Shown: in pieces, positions 52,417 through 63,924 of the stretch
Numbering within the stretch: the stretch's first letter is position 1
Layout of the letters: each line of letters begins with the position of its first letter
Origin: Corallococcus coralloides
GTDB taxonomy: Bacteria; Myxococcota; Myxococcia; Myxococcales; Myxococcaceae
NCBI RefSeq assembly: GCF_044792175.1
Contig: NZ_CP172866.1
Reading direction: 5' to 3' (one strand)
Length of the DNA: 64,000 nt
The notes under the pieces: model-generated
Databases searched by the model: none
What the model saw: the letters and a program-made list of their open reading frames with translations, nothing else
Told to the model about the DNA's origin: nothing
Position numbers and translations under genes: made by a program

Positions 52417-54867
52417 CTAGCGTCTCCCGGAGACGGAGGACGTGGGCGTCGCCACGTTCCGGCCGCTGCCCCCCACGCCAGTGGCGGGGCTCACCGTGGG
52501 CGTGCGCGCGGCCTCCAGCGGGGCCTTGCGGGCTGGCGCGAAGGCGGCGGGGACTTCATTGGCGTAGAGCAGCTTGTAGGCGCTGTAGCTGCTGAGCACG
52601 CGCTTCACGTAGTCGCGGGTCTCGTCGAAGGCGATGTGCTCCACCCACTCGTCCAGCTCCGCCTGGGGCAGCGCCTTGCGCCAGCGCTCCACCGCCGCGG
52701 GGCCCGCGTTGTAGGCGGCCACCGCGTAGGCGGGGTTGCCGTCGAAGTGCTTGAGCAGCGAGCCCAGGTACGCCGCCCCCAGCCGGATGTTCTGCGCGGG
52801 CTGGAGCAGCGACGACACGTCGAACGACGCCAGCTTGAGCGAGTCCGCCACCGCCTGGGCCGTCGTGGGCATGAGCTGCGCGAGCCCCAGCGCGCCGGTG
52901 GACGAGCGCGCGCGAGGGTTGAAGCGGCTCTCCTCGCGGATGAGGCCCTGGAGCAGGTCGGGGTCCACGCGCGCGGCCCGCGAATGGCTCTGGATGAGCG
53001 GCCGGAACGCGAGCGGCCACGTCGCCTCCCACACCGGACGGGACGCGGCGCTGAGCGGCCCGGCGGCCTCCTGGCGCAGCGTCACGCGGGCCACCTGCCG
53101 CGTGGCCCGGCCCCGGCCGGTGCGGCGCATGGTCTGGTAGAGCAGCCGCGCGGGCGCCTCCGCCAGGCCGCGCGTGTCCACCGCGAGCAGCTCCTCCACC
53201 ACGCCCGGCTGGCCCAGGCGCAAAAGCTCCACGCCCGCCGCGAAGCGCGCGTCCTTCTGGAGCGGGCCGGGGGGCAGGGGCCAGACCTCGTCGTTGGCCG
53301 GCGCGGCGGTGTTCACCGCCTTCACCGTGGCCGGCCGCGCGGCGGCCTCCGTCAACCGCGCCAGCCGCTCCGGCGCGTGCTGGGCCAGCCGCGTCCGGGA
53401 CAGCAGCCCGTACCAGGCCGTGGGCCGCTCGGTGGCGATGAGCTCGTAGCGCGCGAGCGCCGCGTCCACCGCGCCGGCGTTCTCCTGGGTCCGCGCCTGC
53501 CAGTAGCGCGCGCGCCAGAGGGCGTCGTCCGTGCGCGCGGCCTCCGGCAACTGCTCCACCGACATCAGCGACGCCAGGCCCGGCTGCGTCTCGCCCTTGC
53601 GCAGGTGCAGCCAGAAGGCGCGGAAGAGGGCCTCGGCGGCGAAGTTGCCGGCCGGGTAGCGCTTCGCCAGCGCCTCGTAGTTCTCCAGCGCCTCGTCCGC
53701 GCGGCCCAGGCGCTGCTGCGTCCAGGCCTCGAAGAAGAGCGCGTCGTCCGCGTAGCCGTGCTCCGGGTAGTCCCGCGCCAGCGTGGCGTACGTCTCCACC
53801 GCCGCCTCGGGCTGCACCACGGACTGCGAATAGGCGAGCAGGTAGAGCGCCTGCGGACGCTGCTCGGGCGACTGGCACTCGCGCGCCACCGGCTCCAGCA
53901 CCTGGATGGCGCGGCGGTGCTGACGCTCCTTGCGCAGGGCGCGGCCCAGGGTGAGCTGGGCGCGGCAGGCCAGCTCGTCCGGGAGCTCCGTGCGGGGCCC
54001 CGAGCGGGCCAGCATGTTCATGGCCGCGACGTTCTGGTGCAGCTCCACCAGCGCCTCCGCGCGGCGCACGCGCCACTTCATGGGCAGGGGCAGGTCGCGC
54101 AGCAGTGCGCGCGCGCGGTCCGCCTCCGGCGACAGGGGCGCGGTGGCCCAGACCTCCAGCAGCGCGCGGTGCTCCGCGTTGTACTGCCCTGCCGCGCGCG
54201 CCAGGTCGCAGTACGCGAGCAGCGCCTTCATGCGCAGCGCGTCCGGCCCGCGGGCCTGCCGGTTGTCGATGAACTCCTGGAGCGCGGCCAGCGCCTCCGG
54301 GATGCGGAGCTGGCGCTTGAGCACGCGCGCCATGGTGAAGCGGGCCTCCGGATAGAGCGGGGAGCCGGGGCTCACCTGGCCATACTGCTCCGCCGCGCGC
54401 AGCGGCTTGCGCAGCCGCTCATGCGCCTGCGCGGCCTTCATCAGGCAGTGGTCTCGCAGCGGGACGTAGTCCTCCGCGAGCGCCGTGAACTCGGCGGCGG
54501 CGGTCGCGAAGTCCCGCGCGAGGAACGCGCTCTGCGCCTGGAGGAAGCGGCCGGGGAGGGAAGGGGAGGGCTCCGTCGCGAGCAGCGCCCGCGCGGACTT
54601 GTACCGGCCGCGGTCGAACTCCGCCTTCGCCTTGGCCAGCAGGCCCTCCGCGAAGTAGGGCGTCAGCCGCTCCGGCCCGAAGGCCTCCGCCGTCACCTCG
54701 TCCTGCGAGGGCTGCGCCGCGGGCGTGTCGAGCAGGGCCTCCAGCTTCTCCTCCGACATCACGTCGCCGGAGTCGTCCTCGCCGGGCGCCTGCGCCCACG
54801 CGGTGCCCGGGGCCCACAGGCCCGCGCACGCGAGCACCACCGCTGCTGTTCCTCGAAGTCCGTCCAT
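52417..54867 (-). CDS. soluble lytic murein transglycosylase (Slt family)
   Basis: Signal peptide. Superhelical repeats. SLT catalytic block (LIREESRFNPRARSSTGALGLAQLMPTTA...AYNAGP). Start is the internal Met at 54867. Confidence 0.8.
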   Translation of the reverse strand: MDGLRGTAAVVLACAGLWAPGTAWAQAPGEDDSGDVMSEEKLEALLDTPAAQPSQDEVTAEAFGPERLTPYFAEGLLAKAKAEFDRGRYKSARALLATEPSPSLPGRFLQAQSAFLARDFATAAAEFTALAEDYVPLRDHCLMKAAQAHERLRKPLRAAEQYGQVSPGSPLYPEARFTMARVLKRQLRIPEALAALQEFIDNRQARGPDALRMKALLAYCDLARAAGQYNAEHRALLEVWATAPLSPEADRARALLRDLPLPMKWRVRRAEALVELHQNVAAMNMLARSGPRTELPDELACRAQLTLGRALRKERQHRRAIQVLEPVARECQSPEQRPQALYLLAYSQSVVQPEAAVETYATLARDYPEHGYADDALFFEAWTQQRLGRADEALENYEALAKRYPAGNFAAEALFRAFWLHLRKGETQPGLASLMSVEQLPEAARTDDALWRARYWQARTQENAGAVDAALARYELIATERPTAWYGLLSRTRLAQHAPERLARLTEAAARPATVKAVNTAAPANDEVWPLPPGPLQKDARFAAGVELLRLGQPGVVEELLAVDTRGLAEAPARLLYQTMRRTGRGRATRQVARVTLRQEAAGPLSAASRPVWEATWPLAFRPLIQSHSRAARVDPDLLQGLIREESRFNPRARSSTGALGLAQLMPTTAQAVADSLKLASFDVSSLLQPAQNIRLGAAYLGSLLKHFDGNPAYAVAAYNAGPAAVERWRKALPQAELDEWVEHIAFDETRDYVKRVLSSYSAYKLLYANEVPAAFAPARKAPLEAARTPTVSPATGVGGSGRNVATPTSSVSGRR

Positions 54868-55306
54868 GCCAGCCCTCGTTCGTCCGCCAGGGACCCCGAT
54901 GGATTGGCACTGCCCGTGCGCTTGGAACCTGCCCGCCTGTCCCCTTGCCAGGCCCGCGTTGCCTTTCGTGCATCCGCCCCCAGGCACACATCCGGAGCGC
55001 TGCAAGAAAGCCAACGGCTCGCGGGCCGGGCGTCTGGCGCCTGGGGTGCTACATACCCAGGGGCGCCTGCCTGCTGTCAGGGCGTGCGTGACGCAAAGGC
55101 CGCCGGGATTGTCCTGGATGGCGGAGCCCTCGCCGTGTCCTCGACTTCGCGCCAGAGGGGATGAGCGTCTGCCTTTGGGTCTCGCCGGAGCGGGGCGGGC
55201 TGTAGACAGGTGATACATGAGGGAAACCGATGTGAAGCATTGGGTCCTCTTGCGGTCGGCGGGCCTGTAGCTTTACCGTGCGCCTGCTGCCCTCCCCCGG
55301 ACATCC

Positions 55307-56236
55307 ATGGCCACTCCGAGTCTCCCGTCGTCGAGTGTCGCAGTCGAAGAAGCCAGGCCCTCGCTGGCCCGCGTCTGGTGGGTCGCGCTGCGGCCCAAGA
55401 CGCTCACGGCCTCCATCGCGCCCACGCTGGTGGGGTGGGCCTTCGCCAACGTGGAAGGGGGCTGGCGGCCGGTGCCGGCGCTGACCTTCCTGGTGGGCTT
55501 CATGCTGGCGCAGATCGTCAGCAACCTGGTGAACGACTACTCGGACTTCGAGCGCGGCGCGGACACGGCGGCCCGGCTGGGGCCCGCGCGCGTCACGCAG
55601 AAGGGCTGGCTGTCCTCACGTGAGGTGGCGGGCGCCGCGGCCCTGGCCTTCACCGGCGCCGCGCTGGCGCTGCTGCTCCTGACGCAGGCGGGCGGCTGGC
55701 CCGTGCTCGCGGGCGGCGCCGTCTGCCTGGCGGGCGCGGTCCTCTATTCCGCGGGCCCCGTGCCGCTGGGCTACATGGGCCTGGGGGACCTGCTGGTGCT
55801 GCTCATCTCCGGCCTCCTGGGCGTCACCGGCAGCTACGGGGTGCTCACCCATCACCTCTCCGGCGACGTGGTGCTCGCGGGCCTGTCCATGGGGCTCATC
55901 GCCGCGGGCATCCTCGCGGTGAACAACCTGCGCGACCGCGAGACGGACGTCCTCGCCGGCAAGCGCACGCTGGTGGTGCGCTTCGGCCGCCGCTTCGGCC
56001 AGTGGGAGTACACGCTCGCGGTGGCGGGGGCGTTCGCGCTGCCGCTCATCGCCTGGGCGCTGTCGCCGGAGCATCCGCGCGCGTGGCTCTTCACGCTGGC
56101 GGGCCTGCCGCTCGCGGCGGTGCAGATCCGCGCCATCTGGAAGGAGGACGGCGGCGCGCTCAACCCGCACCTGGGGCGCACCGCGGGGCTGGGGCTGGTG
56201 TTCGCCGTGCTCCTGTCCGCCGGTCTCAGCCTCTGA
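55307..56236 (+). CDS. menA: 1,4-dihydroxy-2-naphthoate polyprenyltransferase (UbiA family)
   Basis: UbiA motifs: NDYSDFERGAD and a second Asp-rich block NNLRDRETD. 8-9 TM. Confidence 0.8.
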   Translation: MATPSLPSSSVAVEEARPSLARVWWVALRPKTLTASIAPTLVGWAFANVEGGWRPVPALTFLVGFMLAQIVSNLVNDYSDFERGADTAARLGPARVTQKGWLSSREVAGAAALAFTGAALALLLLTQAGGWPVLAGGAVCLAGAVLYSAGPVPLGYMGLGDLLVLLISGLLGVTGSYGVLTHHLSGDVVLAGLSMGLIAAGILAVNNLRDRETDVLAGKRTLVVRFGRRFGQWEYTLAVAGAFALPLIAWALSPEHPRAWLFTLAGLPLAAVQIRAIWKEDGGALNPHLGRTAGLGLVFAVLLSAGLSL

Positions 56237-56306
56237 CTCGGCTAGACTCGCAAGCCCCCGCCCGTCCCCCGTTGCATCCCCCGTCGTCGTTCGCTCCGGA
56301 GTCCCC

Positions 56307-56762
56307 GTGTTCTTCGCGCCGAAGGTCTTCCCCGCCTGGGGTTCGCTCAGCCATGCCGCCCGGTCCCTCTACGGTTGGACCTTCTACACGGTGCCGCTGG
56401 CGCTCCTGACGCTCTTGAGCCCCGCCACCTTCCTCACCGTGGCGGGCATGCAGCCGGACCCCGCGGATCCGCACCACTTCGCGGTCCGCATGTTCGGGTC
56501 GCTCCTCACGTCGCTGTCCTTCATGTCCCACCAGGCCGCGGTGCGGGAGGTCCGCCCGTTCTTCCACTGGGCCGTCATCGGCCGGACCTTCATCACCGGC
56601 GTGGTGCTGCTCTGCACGGCGCTGGGGCAGTGCCCGCCCATCATGGCCTTCTTCGCCTGCATCGACTTCGGGGGCGGCATGTGGACCTTCGTGGGCCTCA
56701 AGCGCGACGCCGCCGAGGCCGCCCGCGGCGCCCAGCCCGCCCTGGCCCATCCGACGCCCTGA
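56307..56762 (+). CDS. hypothetical small membrane protein
   Basis: Hydrophobic segments only. Confidence 0.4.
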   Translation: MFFAPKVFPAWGSLSHAARSLYGWTFYTVPLALLTLLSPATFLTVAGMQPDPADPHHFAVRMFGSLLTSLSFMSHQAAVREVRPFFHWAVIGRTFITGVVLLCTALGQCPPIMAFFACIDFGGGMWTFVGLKRDAAEAARGAQPALAHPTP

Positions 56763-56975
56763 GTCACCCGCGCGATCTGAAGTCCGCGAATTGCGCGGAC
56801 TCTCATAATGTGGTCAGTTTGAACCGATGAGGTGTTCTCCTCCCAACCCTTTCCTGGCTTCACCATCTCCGCGTGGCGGAGCGCTGGCGGCGTCGGGAAG
56901 GGTGGGGCGCGCGGGCCCGCGCGTGAGGATACCTGCTCCCTTTCCTCCCCCCGACTGCCTCCGGCCTCGTCTTCC

Positions 56976-58886
56976 ATGAACCGCTCAATCCTGCTGAAGA
57001 GCGCGTGGTGCGCCCTGCTGGTGCCCCTGCTGTCCTGCAACCTCCTCAAGGTCACTGACGACGAGGGGTCCACGACGGGCCGCGGTGCCAAGCGGTTCGA
57101 CCCCTACCAGGGCCTCAACTCCGGCGCGATCCGGCTGAGCCTCCAGTACATCAACGGCTGCGCCTTCCTGCCCAACGGGCAGATGGTGGCGAAGAACAGC
57201 GTGACCCCGGGGTATCCGGACACGTGCATCACGCCGCTCGCGCAGAACCCGCTGACGCTGTCGCCTCCCACCGGGACGCTGCAGATCCTGTCGGACACGC
57301 AGTACTTCCTGAACCAGTTCTCCGTGTCGGAGACGGTGGTCAACCAGCACAACAACCCCAACGACCAGACCGCCGCGCTGGCGTGGATCAAGAACCAGTC
57401 CGTGTTCTCCGGCCTGGACTGGACCAACGTCAACCAGGGCCCGGACGAGTGGAGCTTCTACAGCCTCGCGGGCGCGGTGGAGGACTGCTGGACCCGCGAG
57501 GTGCAGTTCGGCAACGCGAACTGGCAGAAGGTGAAGGACGACACCATCACCGTGGAGGTGCTGGACGAGACGGGCACCCCGCGCGCGAGCCAGACGTACC
57601 TGCGCTCGGAGCTGCTGGCCTCCTCGCCCTACGCCGGCCACAGCCGCTTCTCCTGGCGCTCGGAGAACCTGAAGCCGCCGCGCTTCCCCGGCGACAAGGA
57701 CCCCGGCACCGTGACGGGCTTCGCGGGCGGCCTGGACCAGAGCGCCATCACGCGCACCATCGCGCGCGTGGACTGGGTGGGCAGCACCAACCCCTTCAAG
57801 GTGCTGCGCGTGCCGCGCCTGTCGGGTCCCGGCGCGCTCCGGGCCACCTGGAGCCAGTTGCCGCACAAGCCGTTCTACTTCCCCGTCACGTACATCATCC
57901 CGGATGACCGCCCGTCCACCTGCACGGACGACGCCGGCAACCCGGTGCAGTGCAGCCCGGGCCTGGACTCGCGGCTGGTGTTCTCGCCCCCGAAGGAGGG
58001 CAGCTTCTACAAGCCTGGCGAGGACGTGAGCGTCTACGTGGACCTGCGCGACAGCGCGGGCGCGCACCTGCACTCGCGCGACCTGCTGCCCAGCGCGCGG
58101 GAGATCATCGGCGGCCAGTCCAACGGCATCCAGACCTTCGTCCCCAACGTCATCGCGACCGTCACGGAGAACGACTCCATCTCCAACGTGGCCATCGCCG
58201 GTCCCATCCAGGACCTGAAGGTGCTGGGCAACCCCAGCGACAAGCCCGAGTTCTTCGCGCGGCCGTTCCCGTTCGCCATGCTGGATGACGCCACGCTCAC
58301 GGGGCTGACGCCGGGCCTCATCGACTACAAGTGGCCCACCCGCCAGACGTTCACGCTGCCCGCGAACGCGAAGCCGGGCACCTACGTGGCGCTGGTGAAG
58401 TTCAACCGCGCGGCCCTGGGCGAGCGCGTCGCCAAGCTGAACCCCTTCTTCTTCCAGGTGGGCCAGGACGAGCCCACGACGTACCCGGGCAACGTGGGCA
58501 ACTGCCAGATCTGCCACCGCGGCGTGCTGTCGCTGGACAACCTGCGCCACGGCCTGTCGGTGGACCACATCGAGAGCTGCAAGGTCTGCCACCACTACGA
58601 CACGGACACGGTGGGCCGCACGCAGGAGATGGTGCACCGCATCCACATGAACTCGCCCAGCTACCCGGCGAACCGCGCGGACTGCACCGTGTGCCACCTG
58701 ACGCGCAAGAGCACGGAGCGGCCCAGCCTGGCGCTGTGCGGCTCGTGCCACATCTCCCAGCACGGGGACGAGTTCTTCCAGATCGCCTTCAACCAGCGCG
58801 GCACGCCCAGCCGGTTCGGCAACTGCGCGCAGACCTGCCACGGCGGCGAGCAGCTCCCCGCCCGACACATCCTCCCCGCGAAGTAG
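56976..58886 (+). CDS. multiheme c-type cytochrome lipoprotein (five CxxCH/CxxxCH motifs in the C-terminal third)
   Basis: Lipobox LLSCN. CQICH, CKVCH, CTVCH, CGSCH and CAQTCH. Confidence 0.7.
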   Translation: MNRSILLKSAWCALLVPLLSCNLLKVTDDEGSTTGRGAKRFDPYQGLNSGAIRLSLQYINGCAFLPNGQMVAKNSVTPGYPDTCITPLAQNPLTLSPPTGTLQILSDTQYFLNQFSVSETVVNQHNNPNDQTAALAWIKNQSVFSGLDWTNVNQGPDEWSFYSLAGAVEDCWTREVQFGNANWQKVKDDTITVEVLDETGTPRASQTYLRSELLASSPYAGHSRFSWRSENLKPPRFPGDKDPGTVTGFAGGLDQSAITRTIARVDWVGSTNPFKVLRVPRLSGPGALRATWSQLPHKPFYFPVTYIIPDDRPSTCTDDAGNPVQCSPGLDSRLVFSPPKEGSFYKPGEDVSVYVDLRDSAGAHLHSRDLLPSAREIIGGQSNGIQTFVPNVIATVTENDSISNVAIAGPIQDLKVLGNPSDKPEFFARPFPFAMLDDATLTGLTPGLIDYKWPTRQTFTLPANAKPGTYVALVKFNRAALGERVAKLNPFFFQVGQDEPTTYPGNVGNCQICHRGVLSLDNLRHGLSVDHIESCKVCHHYDTDTVGRTQEMVHRIHMNSPSYPANRADCTVCHLTRKSTERPSLALCGSCHISQHGDEFFQIAFNQRGTPSRFGNCAQTCHGGEQLPARHILPAK

Positions 58887-58901
58887 GGGAAGCACCCCGC
58901 C

Positions 58902-60023
58902 ATGCAAAGAGCTCTCTTCGTCGGAACGCTCCTCGGCGCGGCCCTGCTGAACGCGGGCTGCCAGGACTCCACCAACCCCGCGGCGTCCACCTTCACGCCG
59001 CGCCCCACGTATGAGAACCGCGAGCCGGAGGGCCTCACCTCCCGCGTGACGGGCTTCACCGTGGATCCGGAGGCCTACTTCCTCAACCTGGCCAACTGCG
59101 CGCCGCCGCCCGCGCAGTGCGCGCTGCCGCCGCTGTACGCGGAGTTCAGCCCGCTCCTGCAGCGCGCGGTGGTGCGCAACGCGCCCATCACCCTGCAGGA
59201 CACGCAGCCGGACCCCGCCACGGGCCAGCCGCCCGCGCCGGGCGCGCCCACGGTGTCGGACGCCAACGGCATCTGGACCCTGGACAAGGTGCCCACCCGC
59301 CGGGGCGCGCCGTTCCTCGTGCTGTCGCTGGGAGGGCAGGCCACGCTGGCCAACAACGCCACGTTGCCGCTGCCGCCTCCGCTGCCGACGCTGCCGCCCG
59401 TGCCGGAGGGCAACTATGTCCCCACGCTGACGGTGCGGCCGGTGGTGCCCGCGCACAGCGCCTGCGTGGGCCTGGAGGCCCTGCAGATGAGCGACAAGGG
59501 CATCCTGGAGGCGGTCGCGAAGTCCCTGACCGCCGAGGGCACGTCCACCACGGTGGCGGACCTGCTCAACCCGGCCCGCTTCGGCGGCGTGACGGTGTTC
59601 TGGATGTACCGGCCGGGCTTCCCCGTGTTCCGCGTGCCGGCGGCGAACACCACCGTGACGGCCACCTCCGGCCGCGTGCTGAACGTCGAGTGGGCGCCCC
59701 CGGGCGCGCTGCCGCCGGCGCTGGCGCCGTTCCAGTCCACGCGCGGCTTCTTCATCCCGCCGGGGCCGCCGGCGCCCAACAGCTCCCTGGGCATCGTCGC
59801 CGTCGTCCACCCGCCGCTGATGGGGCCGCCGCCCGTGGTCCACTACGAGGCGAAGGACGTCACCACGAGCGACCCGGAAGGGCGCCCCTGGTCGCTGATG
59901 CAGCCGGTGGACCTCCCCGTCATCCCGGGGGTCGTGACGTTCGCCGGCCTCCAGTTGGTCAGCAAGACGCCGTCCTCGACGCCCCAGATTCCCCCGCCCA
60001 GCACCTGCCTGCCGGGCCAGTAG
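58902..60023 (+). CDS. Pro-rich lipoprotein, unknown function
   Basis: Lipobox LNAGC. Starts 16 nt after the cytochrome gene. Confidence 0.55.
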   Translation: MQRALFVGTLLGAALLNAGCQDSTNPAASTFTPRPTYENREPEGLTSRVTGFTVDPEAYFLNLANCAPPPAQCALPPLYAEFSPLLQRAVVRNAPITLQDTQPDPATGQPPAPGAPTVSDANGIWTLDKVPTRRGAPFLVLSLGGQATLANNATLPLPPPLPTLPPVPEGNYVPTLTVRPVVPAHSACVGLEALQMSDKGILEAVAKSLTAEGTSTTVADLLNPARFGGVTVFWMYRPGFPVFRVPAANTTVTATSGRVLNVEWAPPGALPPALAPFQSTRGFFIPPGPPAPNSSLGIVAVVHPPLMGPPPVVHYEAKDVTTSDPEGRPWSLMQPVDLPVIPGVVTFAGLQLVSKTPSSTPQIPPPSTCLPGQ

Positions 60024-60122
60024 CCGCCTCACCCGTCCCAACGCCGGCGCTCCCTCCACGCCTCCCCGTGGTGCGGACGGAGCGCCGTGTGCCGTCCCCG
60101 TTCATCCGGAGAAGCGTTCCCC

Positions 60123-61376
60123 ATGATGAAGAAGATCCTGATCGCCATTGGTGCGTTGGTCGCCCTGGTCCTGATTGGCGCGGGCACCGCCATGGGCGTG
60201 GCCAGCCACAAGATCAACAAGTCGTATGACTACGTCGCGCTGCCCAACATCACGCGAGACAGCTCTCCGGAGGGCATTGCCCGCGGTGAGCAGGTGTTCC
60301 GCGCGGTGTGCGCGGAGTGTCACGCGGGCGGTGGCAACACCAAGCCCACGGGCGTGCAGATGCACGACTTCCCGCCGGAGCTGGGCACGTTCTACTCGGC
60401 GAACATCACCTCCGACCCGGAGAAGGGCGTGGGCGCCTGGACGGACCAGGAGATCGCCCGCATGGTGATCAACTCCATCGACAAGAACCACCACGTGCGC
60501 CCCATGCCCGCGTTCCCCAACATGGGTGACAAGGACCTGGCGGCGGTCATCGGGTTCATGCGCTCGGGGCACCCGGACTTCGCGCCGGAGAAGACCCAGC
60601 CGCCGCGCTCCACGCTGACCCCCATGGGCCGGATGGTGTTCTCCTTCGCCATGGGCATCAACGACAAGGGCCGCACGGAGGCGGTGCCCGTGCCCGCGAA
60701 GGCGGCGGACTCGGTGGAGTACGGCCGCTACGTGTCCGCCAGCGTCTACGACTGCGTCTTCTGCCACTCGCCGGGCTTCGAGGGCAGCGCGGCGAAGATG
60801 AAGAACCCGGACACCGTGCTGAGCGGCGGCTTCGAGTTCGACCTGACGCCGCTGGGCGGCGAGGGCAAGCTGCTGTCGCCCAACATCACCGTCAGCGAGA
60901 CGGCCGGCATCGGCAAGTGGACGCTGGACGAGTTCAAGCACGCCATGCGCACGGGCGTGACGCCCGCGGGCCACATCCTGCGCGCGCCCATGCCCAAGTA
61001 CCGCTACGCGGACGACGTGGAGCTCACGGCCATCTACACCTTCCTGCGCTCCATGAAGCCCAACGACACCGTGGTGCCGCCCCCCGCCGGTGGCCGCCCC
61101 AAGGCGGAGCCGTCCAACGACCCGGAGAAGATGTTCAGCTCCCTGGGCTGCGCGACCTGCCACGCCCCCGGCAAGGCCTACGAGGCCAAGCTCCAGGGCG
61201 CCAAGGGCAAGGCCCCGGAGGAAGTGGCCAAGTGGATCCGCAACCCGGAGTCCTTCAAGCCCGGCACGCAGATGCCCACCTACGAGTCGCTCGTCGACGA
61301 GACCAACGCCCTGGCGCTGGCGAAGTACGTCCTGGGCAGGACGGGCGGCACCGTGAGTGAAGGCACCACGCCCTGA
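60123..61376 (+). CDS. membrane-anchored triheme cytochrome c
   Basis: N-terminal TM (ILIAIGALVALVLIGAG). CAECH, CVFCH, CATCH. Confidence 0.75.
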   Translation: MMKKILIAIGALVALVLIGAGTAMGVASHKINKSYDYVALPNITRDSSPEGIARGEQVFRAVCAECHAGGGNTKPTGVQMHDFPPELGTFYSANITSDPEKGVGAWTDQEIARMVINSIDKNHHVRPMPAFPNMGDKDLAAVIGFMRSGHPDFAPEKTQPPRSTLTPMGRMVFSFAMGINDKGRTEAVPVPAKAADSVEYGRYVSASVYDCVFCHSPGFEGSAAKMKNPDTVLSGGFEFDLTPLGGEGKLLSPNITVSETAGIGKWTLDEFKHAMRTGVTPAGHILRAPMPKYRYADDVELTAIYTFLRSMKPNDTVVPPPAGGRPKAEPSNDPEKMFSSLGCATCHAPGKAYEAKLQGAKGKAPEEVAKWIRNPESFKPGTQMPTYESLVDETNALALAKYVLGRTGGTVSEGTTP

Positions 61377-61397
61377 GTTTGACGGCGGTGTGACAAA

Positions 61398-61430
61398 GGC
61401 CCCCGCGTGAGTGTCAACACGCGGGGGGCC
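61398..61430 (+). terminator. hairpin (ggcccccgcgtg-agtgtcaa-cacgcggggggcc) after the cytochrome operon
   Basis: Seen directly. Followed by a second short palindrome. Confidence 0.4.
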
Positions 61431-61498
61431 CGTGAAACATCACGTTTCTTCCGGGGGGGCGGGAGTCACAGGAAGTACAGGTTGGTATAAGCTTTCAT

Positions 61499-62497
61499 GT
61501 GAAGTCGTTCCCCCACCCCGTGGAGCGTCATTCCATGAATGTTTCATCCGCCTCCCCCTCGGCACACCGGACGCAGTCCCCCCAGCCGCTTCACCTCCAC
61601 GAGACGAAGCACCCGGACGCGCAGGGCCCCATCCGGTTGGATGACGTGCTCTGGAACCCGGTCAACGCGGAGGAGGCGCTGGAAGGGCTGGAGAAGATCC
61701 TCGCCCGGCTGAACGCGCGGAATGACTCACGCGCCATCTTCCTGGACATCTACGCCATCGTCACGCGCAAGGTCGTCCACCTGCTGAGCCGGGAGGACGC
61801 GGGCGGCTTCCTCGAACCCGAGTGGCTGTCGCACCTGACGGGCCGCTTCGCGGAGGAGGCGCTCATCGCGGTGCGGGACTCGCTGAAGAACCTGCCGCTG
61901 CCCACCGCGGCGTGGCGCTTCGCGACGCACTACCCGGCGCAGGGCCTGACGCAGCCGTACCAGGACGCGCTCCTGGGCGTGAGCGCGCACATCAACCACG
62001 ACCTGGGAATGGTCGTCTACGACAACATCGCCCACCAGTCGCCGCCGGTGGACGCGCGCCGCCTGGCGCGCTACCGGCATGACTACTTCCACGTGAACGA
62101 GATCCTGCGCTCGTGCATCCCGGAGTGCCTGGACCTGCTCGCGGAGCGCTACCGGTGCGCGTCCACGCGGTTGCTGCTGCGCGTGCCCTTCAGCCGCCCC
62201 GTGGTGGAGCGGGCGGTGATGCAGATGCTCATCGTGTGGCGGCAGCGCGTCTGGGACAACGTCGTCGCGATGCTGGAGGCGCAGACGCCCGAGGAGCACC
62301 AGGCCGTCGTGGAGCGCGTGCGCACCACGTCCGGCCGCATCGCGCAGGCGCTGTGCGCGGACAAGGCGCTCTGGTGGACGGTGCGCGGCGAGTCTCCGCC
62401 GTTCAGCCTGGACCTGCCGCCGGAGGCGTGGCCCGGCGTGGTGCCGCCTCCGGAGCCCGGGCCGGACGCGGACGCGAGCGCTGCCCGCGCCGGCTAG
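61499..62497 (+). CDS. hypothetical protein
   Basis: Coding-like composition. Possible start at 61535. Confidence 0.5.
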   Translation: MKSFPHPVERHSMNVSSASPSAHRTQSPQPLHLHETKHPDAQGPIRLDDVLWNPVNAEEALEGLEKILARLNARNDSRAIFLDIYAIVTRKVVHLLSREDAGGFLEPEWLSHLTGRFAEEALIAVRDSLKNLPLPTAAWRFATHYPAQGLTQPYQDALLGVSAHINHDLGMVVYDNIAHQSPPVDARRLARYRHDYFHVNEILRSCIPECLDLLAERYRCASTRLLLRVPFSRPVVERAVMQMLIVWRQRVWDNVVAMLEAQTPEEHQAVVERVRTTSGRIAQALCADKALWWTVRGESPPFSLDLPPEAWPGVVPPPEPGPDADASAARAG

Positions 62498-62508: not shown

Positions 62509-63924
62509 TCAGGAGGGCGTGACTCCGGCCACGAGGTAGAAGCGCACCTGGCCGGAGTTGACGGCGTAGGCGACGTCCACGCCCAGCAGGGGCAGCACGA
62601 CGTTGTTGAGGTACAGCCGCAGGCCCGCGCCCACGCCCTGGGCCACGGTGACGGGGTTCTGGCCCGTGAGGGTCTCCCGCAGGTAGTCGCGGATGACGCG
62701 TCCGTTGGCGTCGCGGAGGACTCCATCCTCGGGGACGTCCCACCACGCGATGGCGCCCGTGTCGGAGAAGGCCACGCCCCGGAAGGCCAGCGACTGCACC
62801 TTGAAGAGGGGGAAGTGGTACTCGGCCGTGAAGGTGAGGCGGGTGTCGCCGCGGAACTGCCGGTACTGGAAGCCGCGCAGCGTGGTGCCGCCCATCACCA
62901 GCTCCTGGTGGAAGGGCAGGTCCCTGCCCAGGGCCAGCTCGCCGCGCAGCACCAGGTTGTGCTCCGTGAAGAAGCGGATGCCGTGGCGGTAGAGCAGGCC
63001 GAACTTGCGGTAGTCGAACTCGCTCCACACGCCCGGGGTGGACACCTCGTAGGAGGCCTCCAGGTTGAGCCCCTCCGTCACCGCGTGCAGCGTCTGGCGC
63101 GAGTCCAGGCCCACCATGAGGCGCAGCGACGTGTCCCGCATGGCGGGGCCGGTGGAGAAGGGCGGCACCGTGACCGGCATCTCGGGGTCCGGAGCCTTCG
63201 CGTCGATGCTGGCCAGGCGGTACTTCGCCGCCGCGCGCACGCGCTCGAAGAGGATGAAGCCCAGCTCGGAGCTGAGGGACGCGGAGTTGAAGCGCGTGCG
63301 CCGGAGGATCTCCGGGTCGTCCTCGCTGGCGTCCATGCTGTACTCGTCCACGCGGTCGCTCTTGAGCTGCCCCTCCAGGCTGAACTTGAGCTGCGGCAGC
63401 CCGAAGAGGATGGGGTCCAGGAAGCCCACGTACAGGCCGCTCTCGCCGGTGCTCACCTGCGCCGCGACGGCGAACTTCTTCGCGCGGCCGCCCAGGTTGT
63501 TCTCCGCGTAGAGCAGCCCGCCGCCGGTGTTCGCGGAGGACAGGGCCACCGTGGGCGCCACCACCCACGACGCCTTGTCCTTCACGCGCAGCACCAGCCG
63601 CACGCGCCCGTCGGGCATCGGCTCCGTGCTCACGCGGGCGTCCTGGAAGAGGCCCGTGGCCAGCAGGCGCCGCTTCACCTTCTCCAGCTCCTCGTCGTCC
63701 ACCTCGTCGCCCACGTCCACCTTGCCGAACGAGCGCACCGTCGAGGACCGCGTCTTGTTCGCGCCCTCCACCGTCACGTCCCCGACCTCCGAGCGTTGGG
63801 AGGTGGACACGGGCGTGTCCTCGTCGGCGTGGGCCACGGCGGCCCCCAGGCCCGTCAGGGCCAGGGCGAGGACGGACAGGTGACGGCGCAGGCAGGAGAG
63901 ACGCACGCACCGCTCATACTCCAC
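62509..63924 (-). CDS. Omp85/TamA-BamA-family outer-membrane protein (POTRA + surface-antigen beta-barrel)
   Basis: Signal peptide. POTRA-like N-terminal region. Beta-barrel ending in an aromatic-rich C-terminus. Confidence 0.7.
   Translation of the reverse strand: MEYERCVRLSCLRRHLSVLALALTGLGAAVAHADEDTPVSTSQRSEVGDVTVEGANKTRSSTVRSFGKVDVGDEVDDEELEKVKRRLLATGLFQDARVSTEPMPDGRVRLVLRVKDKASWVVAPTVALSSANTGGGLLYAENNLGGRAKKFAVAAQVSTGESGLYVGFLDPILFGLPQLKFSLEGQLKSDRVDEYSMDASEDDPEILRRTRFNSASLSSELGFILFERVRAAAKYRLASIDAKAPDPEMPVTVPPFSTGPAMRDTSLRLMVGLDSRQTLHAVTEGLNLEASYEVSTPGVWSEFDYRKFGLLYRHGIRFFTEHNLVLRGELALGRDLPFHQELVMGGTTLRGFQYRQFRGDTRLTFTAEYHFPLFKVQSLAFRGVAFSDTGAIAWWDVPEDGVLRDANGRVIRDYLRETLTGQNPVTVAQGVGAGLRLYLNNVVLPLLGVDVAYAVNSGQVRFYLVAGVTPS

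Follow-up and report, generated by a model that had tools for sequence, protein, structure and literature searches.

Evidence for a conserved gene module of a pentaheme lipoprotein, a partner lipoprotein and a triheme cytochrome c beside menA in Corallococcus coralloides

Organization of the locus

We examined a window of 64,000 nucleotides (the whole stretch of DNA analysed) from Corallococcus coralloides, in which three consecutive genes encode a pentaheme lipoprotein (636 aa, 56976-58886), a proline-rich partner lipoprotein (373 aa, 58902-60023) and a triheme class-I cytochrome c (417 aa, 60123-61376). All members of this module are annotated in databases as hypothetical, and the literature search returned no paper naming the C. 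coralloides locus tags. Every feature of the window described below lies, like these genes, on the plus strand.

Upstream of the module lies menA (1,4-dihydroxy-2-naphthoate polyprenyltransferase, 309 aa, 55307-56236), at the position given in an earlier note on this DNA. The profile searches agree with that assignment, with 170 bits against TIGR00751 (cutoff 102.15) and 102 bits against PF01040 (UbiA); the score against NF004751 (236 bits) is under the cutoff of 264. menA precedes the module in all ten other Corallococcus loci compared. Its closest relatives outside the genus (49-52% identity) are members of ordinary men operons, and a MenA with 66% identity is found elsewhere without an adjoining module. 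We regard menA as a genomic neighbour of the module, probably belonging to a separate transcription unit.

The gap between menA and the pentaheme gene measures 740 nt here versus about 220-260 nt in sister species, and it contains a strain- or lineage-specific segment of ~530 bp (56237-56766) that none of the ten other Corallococcus loci compared possesses. When positions 56100-57050 of the window were used as the blastn query, only the flanks aligned (query positions 1-136 and about 663-951). The segment carries a hydrophobic ORF of 151 aa (56307-56762) whose GC3 (0.86) is below that of the neighbouring genes, and which found no match in tblastn of the ten Corallococcus loci and no Pfam or NCBIfam family. 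The earlier note had listed this small membrane protein immediately upstream of the cytochrome genes; the ORF is real, but we place it outside the system because its host segment is absent from the ten other loci.

The remainder of the gap is a conserved leader (56767-56975; 92-95% nucleotide identity to seven Corallococcus loci and ~85% to three more distant ones by blastn), in which a hairpin (~56778-56803, core GTCCGCG-AATTG-CGCGGAC, z = -2.5) is followed by a locally AT-rich stretch (CTCATAATGTGGTCAGTTTGAACC). We interpret the leader as a putative menA terminator combined with the module promoter and 5' UTR. A promoter scan found no sigma-70 consensus, so the module promoter is inferred only; the hairpin and the conserved AT-rich stretch in this spacer suggest that the three module genes probably have a promoter of their own.

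Two further RNA elements were identified by folding. The 99-nt spacer between the partner and triheme genes is more stable than any of 200 shuffles (-41 kcal/mol, z = -3.6) and contains a stem-loop (60042-60091) that is kept in 11 Corallococcus sequences, with 81% of cells paired versus 42-60% in a control in which the pairing partners were slid, and with three pairs showing changes on both sides. At the end of the module, a GC-rich terminator-like hairpin (61398-61430) consists of a 10-bp GC stem (CCCCCGCGTG/CACGCGGGGG) and an 8-nt loop; the surrounding 61-nt stretch folds at -33.1 kcal/mol (z = -4.05), and no shuffle was equally stable. The strong hairpin of the terminator proposed earlier is thus present, but no U tract was found 3' of it, so that it is not a canonical intrinsic terminator under the rules of the scan.

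A pentaheme lipoprotein distantly related to MtrC, and its partner

The pentaheme lipoprotein begins with a signal peptide and a lipobox (LLSC; Cys21 at 57036-57038), the latter kept in all homologs, and an invariant tether motif (residues 22-47). Its heme motifs are all C-terminal, within residues 510-622, and comprise the four CxxCH motifs CQICH (58503-58517), CKVCH (58578-58592), CTVCH (58683-58697) and CGSCH (58737-58751) together with one CxxxCH motif, CAQTCH (58824-58841). None of 20000 residue shuffles of the protein reached four CxxCH (mean 0.012). Across 25 homologs sharing 39-94% identity the five motifs are invariant, and the domain has exactly five further invariant His and no invariant Met, which together indicate that it likely binds five bis-His hemes, as far as sequence conservation can tell.

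The five-heme protein with a beta-rich N-terminus of about 500 aa that the earlier note described is borne out by the AlphaFold2 secondary structure, in which residues 52-495 are nearly all strands. The N-terminal ~450 aa (residues ~50-500) form three or more Ig-like beta-sandwiches. The pLDDT of the heme domain is low (43-65), which we attribute to the hemes missing from the model. The partner lipoprotein, announced as starting within 16 nt, begins 15 nt past the pentaheme stop codon, carries a lipobox (NAGC, Cys20), contains 16.4% Pro and consists of transthyretin/CnaB-like beta-sandwich domains with no cofactor motif. Searches for a catalytic or enzyme fold in the N-terminal region of the pentaheme protein or in the partner returned beta-sandwich matches only.

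The suggested comparison with OmcA/MtrC-like proteins was carried out and proved apt: in sequence as well as in fold, the pentaheme domain is matched best by the Shewanella outer-membrane cytochromes MtrF, OmcA, MtrC and UndA. Its profile matches MtrF best among PDB entries (E = 0.03, heme motifs in register), and the top Pfam match of the protein is PF22113 (MtrC/MtrF domains II/IV, E = 3.6e-5), a family precomputed for about 22 of 120 pentaheme homologs. The family cutoffs for MtrC/OmcA are not reached (TIGR03507, 19 bits versus 209.3; PF22113, 23.8 versus a GA of 30), and the domain is a distant relative of MtrC/OmcA/MtrF domain II/IV. Like MtrC, OmcA, MtrF and UndA, the protein is a predicted lipoprotein that joins beta-sheet domains to a pentaheme domain of predicted bis-His ligation, with heme motifs whose order and spacing align with MtrF domain II. 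One of its beta domains has a conserved Cys-x9-Cys pair, presumably reminiscent of the CX8C disulfide of MtrC domain III. Unlike MtrC and OmcA, it has one pentaheme domain and five hemes rather than two such domains and 10-11 hemes, its beta domains are all N-terminal to the hemes rather than alternating in a I-II-III-IV layout, and its companion genes encode a class-I triheme cytochrome and a beta-sandwich lipoprotein, MtrA- and MtrB-like genes being absent. The hosts also differ from Shewanella, the module being found in aerobic Myxococcaceae.

A triheme cytochrome c resembling dehydrogenase subunits

The true start of the triheme protein is the ATG at 60123. As described in the earlier note, it combines three CxxCH motifs (CAECH, 60309-60323; CVFCH, 60753-60767; CATCH, 61149-61163), a number reached in none of 20000 residue shuffles, with a hydrophobic N-terminal stretch of 23 residues; no lipobox occurs in this stretch or in any of 20 homologs. 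The hydrophobic helix could also be a cleaved signal peptide (AMG-VA) rather than an anchor. Three Met-Pro motifs provide the probable Met ligands M128, M290 and M384, and a hydrophobic segment between domains (residues ~168-180) is conserved. Pfam matches are limited to the class-I cytochrome c domains PF13442 and PF00034, with no CCP/MauG peroxidase domain.

Among solved structures, the protein matches the glucose dehydrogenase beta subunit (8hdd_B, 4.1e-20, ~310 residues at 40-349), the fructose dehydrogenase cytochrome subunit (7w2j_C, 9.6e-18, in three stretches) and the ADH cytochrome c subunit (8gy2_B, 4.5e-16), in keeping with the comparison to triheme ADH subunits proposed earlier. 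Its third domain is similar to c550/c551 and to the cytochrome c domain found in subunit II of caa3 oxidase. By sequence, then, membrane-bound dehydrogenases supply its homologs, namely their quinone-reactive cytochrome subunits (GDH beta, FdhC, AdhB); this homology, together with the indirect signs given by the N-terminal anchor, the hydrophobic inter-domain segment and the men-gene linkage, suggests that it may react with quinone. It shares with these subunits the set and order of three class-I heme c domains, the alignment spanning domains 1-3, as well as Met-Pro sixth-ligand motifs, membrane association and a place in a three-gene unit. It differs in its predicted anchor, an N-terminal transmembrane helix, and in having no PQQ, FAD or Moco catalytic subunit encoded alongside. 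As its quinone the host uses menaquinone (MK-8 in M. xanthus), where AdhB, FdhC and GDH-beta work with ubiquinone.

Predicted location of the module proteins

In M. xanthus, Lys at position +2 of a lipoprotein specifies the inner membrane and Ala at +7 the matrix (PMC3222651). The sequences after the lipobox are C-N-L-L-K-V-T in the pentaheme protein and C-Q-D-S-T-N-P in its partner, so that neither lipoprotein has Lys at +2 or, as a signal for matrix export, Ala at +7. Homologs behave similarly: position +2 is mostly N, D or Q in the pentaheme family (Lys in 3 of 68, Arg in 1 of 68) and is never Lys in 65 partner homologs. Under the M. xanthus rule, the outer membrane is then the default destination of both lipoproteins. 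Triheme homologs have a transmembrane helix, and a diheme cytochrome c encoded in paralogous clusters is either a lipoprotein with K, R or Q at +2 or has a transmembrane helix, which places it on the inner-membrane side. These sorting features predict that the two lipoproteins probably reach the outer membrane while the cytochrome c that accompanies them is retained at the inner one.

Conservation of the module and linkage to menaquinone genes

In 58 of 60 species-representative genomes of Myxococcaceae and Archangiaceae, the pentaheme gene has the partner gene as its direct neighbour, and the pair often occurs as several paralogs. The earlier note regarded such a chain as not a textbook feature of aerobic myxobacteria; its relatives, though unstudied, are common in these aerobes, occurring across the 60 species genomes, and so are no peculiarity of this strain. 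In 14 loci the pair is joined by a triheme gene, which lies downstream in Corallococcus and upstream in Hyalangium-type loci, that is, on opposite sides in two genera-level lineages. One relative (L068) encodes the third triheme domain as a separate gene.

Genes for menaquinone synthesis lie within 10 kb in 13 of these 14 loci, in four arrangements. In Corallococcus, menA is upstream of the module. In the Hyalangium type (L016, L027), the order menF-triheme-pentaheme-partner is followed by menD-H-A-C-E, so that the module is inserted inside the men cluster; all of these men genes score over their NCBIfam cutoffs. In L015, menF lies downstream, and in L053 and L068 menA is transcribed divergently, while menF, YceI and a monoheme cytochrome c lie downstream. 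The recurrence of this linkage in other genera and in different gene orders speaks for the quinol-linked part of the earlier reading. Elsewhere, a Rieske oxygenase takes the place of the men genes (about 23 module loci), the pair occurs alone (about 18 loci), or, in place of the triheme gene, paralogous clusters carry a gene for a homologous diheme cytochrome c beside the pair; several paralogous copies adjoin NRPS genes.

We also searched the neighbourhoods for partners of known systems. No dehydrogenase gene stands beside the triheme gene within the 64-kb window, and none of the 14 triheme-adjacent loci encodes a dehydrogenase domain in its cluster, the triheme gene staying with the pair instead; this speaks against its being the canonical subunit of a dehydrogenase encoded elsewhere, an alternative that the earlier note had raised. 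Neither an MtrA-like decaheme cytochrome nor an MtrB-like porin was found in the window or within 10 kb in 60 related loci. An Omp85 gene lies downstream in Corallococcus only, and the module has no conserved porin neighbour. Taken together, the three genes behave as a single conserved unit that encodes lipoproteins and c-type cytochromes located outside the cytoplasm.

Discussion

We consider it probable that the module is a menaquinone-linked envelope electron relay. As proposed here, 56976-61376 would encode a three-subunit c-type cytochrome module between the inner-membrane menaquinone pool and the outer cell envelope. The triheme cytochrome c, held by its N-terminal helix at the periplasmic face of the inner membrane, would exchange electrons with menaquinol/menaquinone as AdhB, FdhC and GDH-beta do with ubiquinone, and would pass them to the 636-aa lipoprotein tethered to the outer membrane. 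In the latter, the stack of Ig-like beta-sandwiches may serve as a spacer or binding platform for a predicted MtrC-type chain of five bis-His hemes, and the Pro-rich beta-sandwich lipoprotein may be its non-redox structural or docking subunit; the proteins would then form a physical complex.

Regarding the direction of flow and the terminal substrate, we judge outward transfer the likelier, from menaquinol through the triheme and pentaheme proteins to a periplasmic or extracellular oxidant, for which Fe(III), Mn(IV), humics or a ferric chelate are candidates; the relay with outward flow is nonetheless proposed only tentatively. With neither a porin nor a periplasmic decaheme partner nearby, no established path leads across the outer membrane. 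On general grounds, a step that takes electrons from His/Met to bis-His hemes could run uphill in thermodynamic terms. The characterised triheme homologs reduce quinone and do not oxidise quinol, which runs counter to outward flow. Also counting against the relay are the module loci that lack men genes, which show that this linkage is not universal, and the probably separate transcription of menA in this window.

Several known systems offer parallels. The flavin-based extracellular electron transfer locus of Listeria monocytogenes (DmkA/DmkB, Ndh2, EetA/B, PplA) likewise co-locates a MenA-family gene with genes for extracytoplasmic lipoprotein electron carriers, a co-location which suggests that quinone supply is tied to an envelope electron outlet. 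It differs in its lack of hemes, its flavinylated PplA, its Gram-positive envelope and its dedicated NADH dehydrogenase; the menA beside the module is no more than a candidate for a second, dedicated copy. Functional analogues are the CymA/NapC/NirT quinol dehydrogenases and the Geobacter porin-cytochrome conduits, where an inner-membrane multiheme cytochrome similarly links menaquinol to periplasmic and outer-membrane lipoprotein cytochromes. In contrast to CymA/NapC/NirT, the triheme protein consists of cytochrome c domains of class I and lacks the NapC/NirT tetraheme fold, and in contrast to the Geobacter conduits no porin gene accompanies the module.

A less likely reading reverses the flow: the pentaheme protein would accept electrons from a reductant in the periplasm or outside the cell (for example Fe(II), reduced humics or shuttles, or a compound derived from prey) and deliver them via the triheme protein to menaquinone, or to a terminal oxidase through its c551-like third domain. 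The module would then resemble a three-subunit ADH, FDH or GDH in which a multiheme lipoprotein replaces the flavo- or quinoprotein. All solved triheme homologs are indeed electron-accepting, quinone-reducing subunits of three-subunit dehydrogenases, and the module likewise comprises a large, a small non-redox and a triheme subunit. By established heme chemistry, low-potential bis-His hemes feeding His/Met hemes would be the downhill order, the host is an aerobe, and the caa3-like third domain suits the oxidase route. However, neither the pentaheme protein nor its partner has a recognisable catalytic or substrate-oxidising domain, menaquinone (about -74 mV) is less favourably reduced from His/Met hemes than ubiquinone, and direct feeding of an oxidase leaves the recurrent men-gene linkage unexplained.

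A non-respiratory role appears unlikely, be it detoxification by quinol-driven reduction of periplasmic peroxide or other oxidants, reductive release of siderophore iron, sensing or a repurposed non-redox function. Several paralogs per genome with differing neighbours suggest accessory rather than core energy functions. Some of them lie beside NRPS genes, and isochorismate synthase genes could serve catecholate siderophores. M. xanthus offers a precedent for a repurposed c-type cytochrome in TfcP (PMC8833165). Yet the triheme protein has no peroxidase domain, the ten heme-ligand positions of the pentaheme protein are invariant at 39-94% identity, which argues for retained electron transfer, and the flanking MenD, MenH, MenA, MenC and MenE are specific to menaquinone, not siderophores. 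Finally, a coincidental neighbourhood of a housekeeping menA, a triheme subunit of a dehydrogenase elsewhere and an unrelated pair of envelope lipoproteins is improbable: the hairpin and probable promoter that part menA from the module, the ordinary men-operon relatives of menA and the many paralogous pairs without a men or triheme gene nearby would fit it, but not the triheme gene on either side of the pair in two lineages, the men flanks in four orders (one an insertion inside the men cluster), the diheme homolog in the same place or the absence of a dehydrogenase gene beside the triheme gene in the window.

The menaquinone-linked relay would represent an envelope electron-transfer capacity not yet studied in oxygen-breathing predatory myxobacteria. 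As a bolder and rather speculative extension, aerobic predatory Myxococcaceae may possess an unrecognised extracellular or envelope conduit, in which a half-MtrC-like pentaheme protein, a beta-sandwich dock and an ADH-type triheme protein stand in for CymA/MtrA/MtrB and the men genes supply a dedicated naphthoquinone pool, as DmkA does. If true, these bacteria might use minerals, humics or prey as electron sinks or sources whenever O2 runs short within swarms and fruiting bodies.

Organization of the locus

The locus lies on the plus strand and opens with menA (55307-56236), which scores 170 bits against TIGR00751 (cutoff 102) and encodes a classical MenA. A 151-aa hydrophobic ORF (56307-56762) separates menA from three genes that we refer to as the module (56976-61376). 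These encode a 636-aa lipoprotein with five heme motifs (pentaheme protein, 56976-58886), a 373-aa Pro-rich lipoprotein (partner, 58902-60023) whose gene starts 15 nt past the pentaheme gene, and a 417-aa N-terminally anchored cytochrome c with three heme motifs (triheme protein, 60123-61376), for which ATG 60123 is the real start. A 10-bp GC hairpin without a U tract follows on the same strand (61398-61430, -33 kcal/mol, z = -4.05). The pentaheme protein is 100% identical to an entry from Corallococcus sp. AS-1-12 and the partner is 100% identical to an entry from C. interemptor. An earlier note, made from the sequence alone, had described these genes and motifs correctly: all elements are present, and the heme-motif numbers were reached in none of 20000 shuffles of either protein. 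Its interpretation stands in part. The reading as an electron-transfer module with a tie to menaquinone is supported, while the small membrane protein (the 151-aa ORF) has to be dropped as a subunit because it lies in a putative strain-specific insertion. The stretch of about 530 bp that carries this ORF (56237-56766), which may have been gained here or lost elsewhere, is missing from all 10 other Corallococcus loci compared, where only the flanks align. None of 66 loci has a relative of the ORF, which matches no family.

The 209 nt preceding the pentaheme start codon are 92-95% identical across the closer Corallococcus species and contain a hairpin (z = -2.5) and, after it, a local AT-rich stretch. 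From this arrangement we infer a terminator of menA and then a putative promoter of the module's own; a sigma-70 promoter scan found none. Terminator-like sites are not more frequent than in shuffled sequence, and an Rfam scan of 55000-61700 (E <= 1) returned three sub-threshold chance matches only, with no riboswitch and no leader. Between the partner and triheme genes, a stem-loop (60042-60091; -41 kcal/mol for the spacer, z = -3.6) is retained in 11 Corallococcus sequences with a few compensatory changes, and could set unequal expression of the lipoproteins versus the triheme subunit.

Several neighbouring genes recur within the genus. Upstream of menA, a 933-aa TPR and SLT lytic transglycosylase (52417-55218, minus strand) is conserved in Corallococcus; its top NCBIfam match is the spirochaete flagellar-assembly transglycosylase BB0259, below cutoff (170 versus 234 bits). 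Downstream of the module are a DUF5995 gene (61499-62497, plus strand), present in 6/10 other Corallococcus loci, and a gene for a 471-aa Omp85-family protein with a single POTRA domain (62509-63924, minus strand), present in 8/10. Neither of the two adjoins the module in any non-Corallococcus genus compared.

Protein components of the module

The heme motifs of the pentaheme protein (CQICH, CKVCH, CTVCH, CGSCH and CAQTCH) all fall within residues 510-622. In an alignment of 25 homologs (39-94% identity to the window protein), all five motifs and the lipobox Cys are invariant. Since exactly five further His (H525, H554, H557, H596 and H631) and no Met of the heme domain are invariant, the alignment fits a domain that would hold five bis-His hemes. 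A further four Cys (C62, C84, C316 and C326) are invariant as well and suggest two disulfides, in keeping with an extracytoplasmic protein. The AlphaFold2 model (pLDDT 75 overall, above 85 over most of residues 50-500) consists of a series of beta-sandwiches and then a helical heme domain; the latter is poorly modelled, as expected for a model without hemes. We saw no enzyme-like fold and no metal-site signature in the N-terminal 450 residues. A Foldseek search of the model against PDB retrieved only arrays of Ig-like domains of a generic kind (complement C3, transglutaminase, RbmA), at TM of about 0.12, which we rejected as functionally uninformative. The tether that links the lipid anchor to the first beta domain (residues 22-47, window 57039-57116) is disordered in the model (pLDDT of about 30) and bears a near-invariant E-x4-GRG-x3-FDPY-x4-SGA motif across the 25 homologs. 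Because the motif is almost invariant although the tether is disordered, it suggests a putative docking site for the partner or a sorting machine.

In Pfam, the pentaheme protein matches PF22113 (MtrC/MtrF domains II/IV) best, with 23.8 bits where the gathering score is 30. Searching PDB with the family profile gave MtrF as best match (E = 0.03), in an alignment that lines up heme motifs 1-4; the single sequence gave a chance match only (E = 0.19). On these two top matches, the C-terminal domain is predicted to be distantly related to the pentaheme domain found in outer-membrane cytochromes of Shewanella. The protein as a whole falls outside the MtrC/MtrF family: its hemes are half as many, its domains are ordered differently, and it has no partners of the MtrA/MtrB type.

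The partner has no sequence relatives beyond this system and no match in a PDB sequence search. Its model (pLDDT 70.6) shows transthyretin/CnaB-like beta-sandwiches joined by Pro-rich linkers, and it evolves faster than the pentaheme protein (72-80% versus 90-98% identity among the closer Corallococcus species).

The triheme protein (motifs CAECH, CVFCH and CATCH, each with a Met-Pro motif after it) aligns over about 310 residues to the beta subunit of FAD-glucose dehydrogenase (4.1e-20), with further matches to the cytochrome subunits of fructose dehydrogenase and PQQ-alcohol dehydrogenase. Such cytochrome subunits hand electrons to the membrane quinone. Unlike them, the triheme protein has a 23-residue N-terminal hydrophobic helix and no lipobox, a feature conserved in 20/20 homologs, and no dehydrogenase gene adjoins its gene. 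A hydrophobic segment between heme domains 1 and 2 is also conserved and, speculatively, might approach the membrane. A quinol peroxidase (YhjA/QPO-like) was considered for this protein and rejected because no CCP/MauG domain was found.

Distribution and gene neighbourhoods

The 120 close homologs of the pentaheme protein all come from Myxococcaceae/Archangiaceae or metagenomes, and none is named. No contig record matched the window's pentaheme protein exactly, and close homologs took its place in the comparison. A profile search of 1.8 billion representative sequences gave 207 relatives, including lipoproteins of about 600-670 aa with the same Ig-plus-pentaheme half from 'Deltaproteobacteria' MAGs and Pendulispora. 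Some more distant relatives, which share the Ig and multiheme region, are proteins of 900-1200 aa; two of these (P0237 and P0242) appear by eye to end in a T9SS-type C-terminal sorting domain, and would be secreted or surface proteins of another phylum.

A scan of species-representative genomes, with neighbours placed by tblastn, returned 60 loci. The partner gene lies downstream of the pentaheme gene in 57 of these and upstream of it in one. Four contexts can be distinguished. The order menA, pentaheme, partner, triheme is that of Corallococcus (nine scan loci, the window and one further locus, L004). In Hyalangium and Archangiaceae MAGs (five loci), the order is triheme, pentaheme, partner, with men genes around. 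About 18 loci hold the pentaheme/partner pair alone. In the remaining context (about 23 loci from Myxococcus, Pyxidicoccus, Archangium, Vitiosangium and Citreicoccus), the pair follows genes for a 60-aa acidic peptide, a Rieske/VanA_C oxygenase and, usually, a diheme cytochrome c lipoprotein.

This last arrangement is a paralogous five-gene operon, as in M. xanthus (L001, 5719-10999) and about 22 other loci, Pyxidicoccus and Archangium included. Its very acidic peptide has the C-terminal end EEIDFLLEEIESKIAPLALA and resembles a precursor peptide; the oxygenase looks cytoplasmic, yet is linked to periplasmic cytochromes, and the diheme lipoprotein has Lys at +2.

Men genes lie within 10 kb, in four different orders, at 13 of the 14 loci where a triheme gene adjoins the pair; the fourteenth (L018) is truncated by a contig end. 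At two loci (L016 and L027) the module sits between menF and menD-menH-menA-menC-menE, all above NCBIfam cutoffs, and at another (L015) menF is downstream of the module. Two more (L053 and L068) have a divergent menA and, downstream of the module, menF, a YceI gene and a monoheme cytochrome c gene. This recurrence is the main evidence that the module is functionally tied to menaquinone, a tie that is not universal in the wider family. The nearest non-Corallococcus relatives of the window MenA (49-52% identity) belong to ordinary men operons without cytochromes, a relative at 66% identity has no module beside it, and none from Myxococcus, Pyxidicoccus or Archangium is among the best 120 MenA matches. 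Among Corallococcus species, conservation is lower for MenA (75-82%) than for the adjacent pentaheme protein (85-98%), and the 64-kb window holds no other men genes. The window MenA may be a housekeeping enzyme that happens to adjoin the module or may give it a dedicated supply of quinone.

Two loci deserve separate description. In the Archangiaceae-like MAG of L068 (7815-15666), the cytochrome adjoining the pair contains just two heme domains; a 124-aa monoheme cytochrome c is encoded by a gene of its own, past menF and the YceI (polyisoprenoid-binding family) gene. Domain 3 of the triheme protein thus seems to have become a separate protein here. The divergent menA of this locus is adjoined by an NRPS and a P450. 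In Hyalangium versicolor (L006, 1-6536), a shikimate-pathway run (genes for DAHP synthase, shikimate kinase, a shikimate-dehydrogenase-like protein, chorismate synthase, DHQ synthase and EPSP synthase) lies beside menF and the cytochrome module in divergent orientation, the whole being a chorismate-to-menaquinone supercluster.

Predicted sorting

In M. xanthus, lipoproteins with Lys at +2 go to the inner membrane, those with Ala at +7 to the matrix and the rest to the outer membrane (PMC3222651). Position +2 of the pentaheme homologs is mostly N, D or Q (Lys in 3/68), and no partner homolog has Lys there. The triheme proteins carry a transmembrane helix, and the diheme cytochromes of the paralogous operon have either K, R or Q at +2 or a transmembrane helix. 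By these residues, the recurring pattern is predicted to be a class-I cytochrome c tethered at the inner membrane together with two outer-membrane-bound lipoproteins.

Discussion

On the best-supported reading, the module relays electrons between the pool of menaquinone and the outer envelope. Electrons would pass from quinone to the triheme protein and on to the pentaheme protein, and the partner would serve as a scaffold. We favour outward flow, toward the envelope, on account of the MtrC-like terminal domain and the linkage to men genes. Inward flow may apply instead: both the precedent of the triheme homologs and the potentials typical of His/Met compared with bis-His hemes speak for it. 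Less likely are a non-respiratory role (siderophore iron release, detoxification or a repurposed cytochrome) and a merely coincidental gene neighbourhood, the latter to be weighed against the men linkage. A porin-cytochrome complex is rejected, because no porin is conserved with the module and the Omp85 gene is restricted to Corallococcus loci.

Electron conduits built of multiheme cytochromes are known chiefly from anaerobes that respire metals, Shewanella, Geobacter and Anaeromyxobacter among them; soil myxobacteria are considered strict aerobes. The module represents a variant of these electron-transfer systems that is uncharacterised and spread across the lineage, and it joins parts of two known ones: a pentaheme domain of the MtrC type and a triheme subunit of the ADH type. 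Our literature search found no paper or experimental work on the pentaheme family, nor any on its locus tags in C. coralloides. The relay hypothesis lends itself to direct testing, since Corallococcus and Myxococcus can be grown in culture and some of their strains are amenable to genetics.

In these myxobacteria, held to be strictly aerobic, we find a conserved family that has multiple paralogs and a subunit composition not seen before. If the link between menaquinone and the outer envelope is true, it would represent a new way for electrons to cross the periplasm in which no MtrA/MtrB-type complex takes part, would offer a physiological handle on O2 limitation or iron acquisition in dense swarms and fruiting bodies, and would give a function to several hundred 'hypothetical' lipoproteins.
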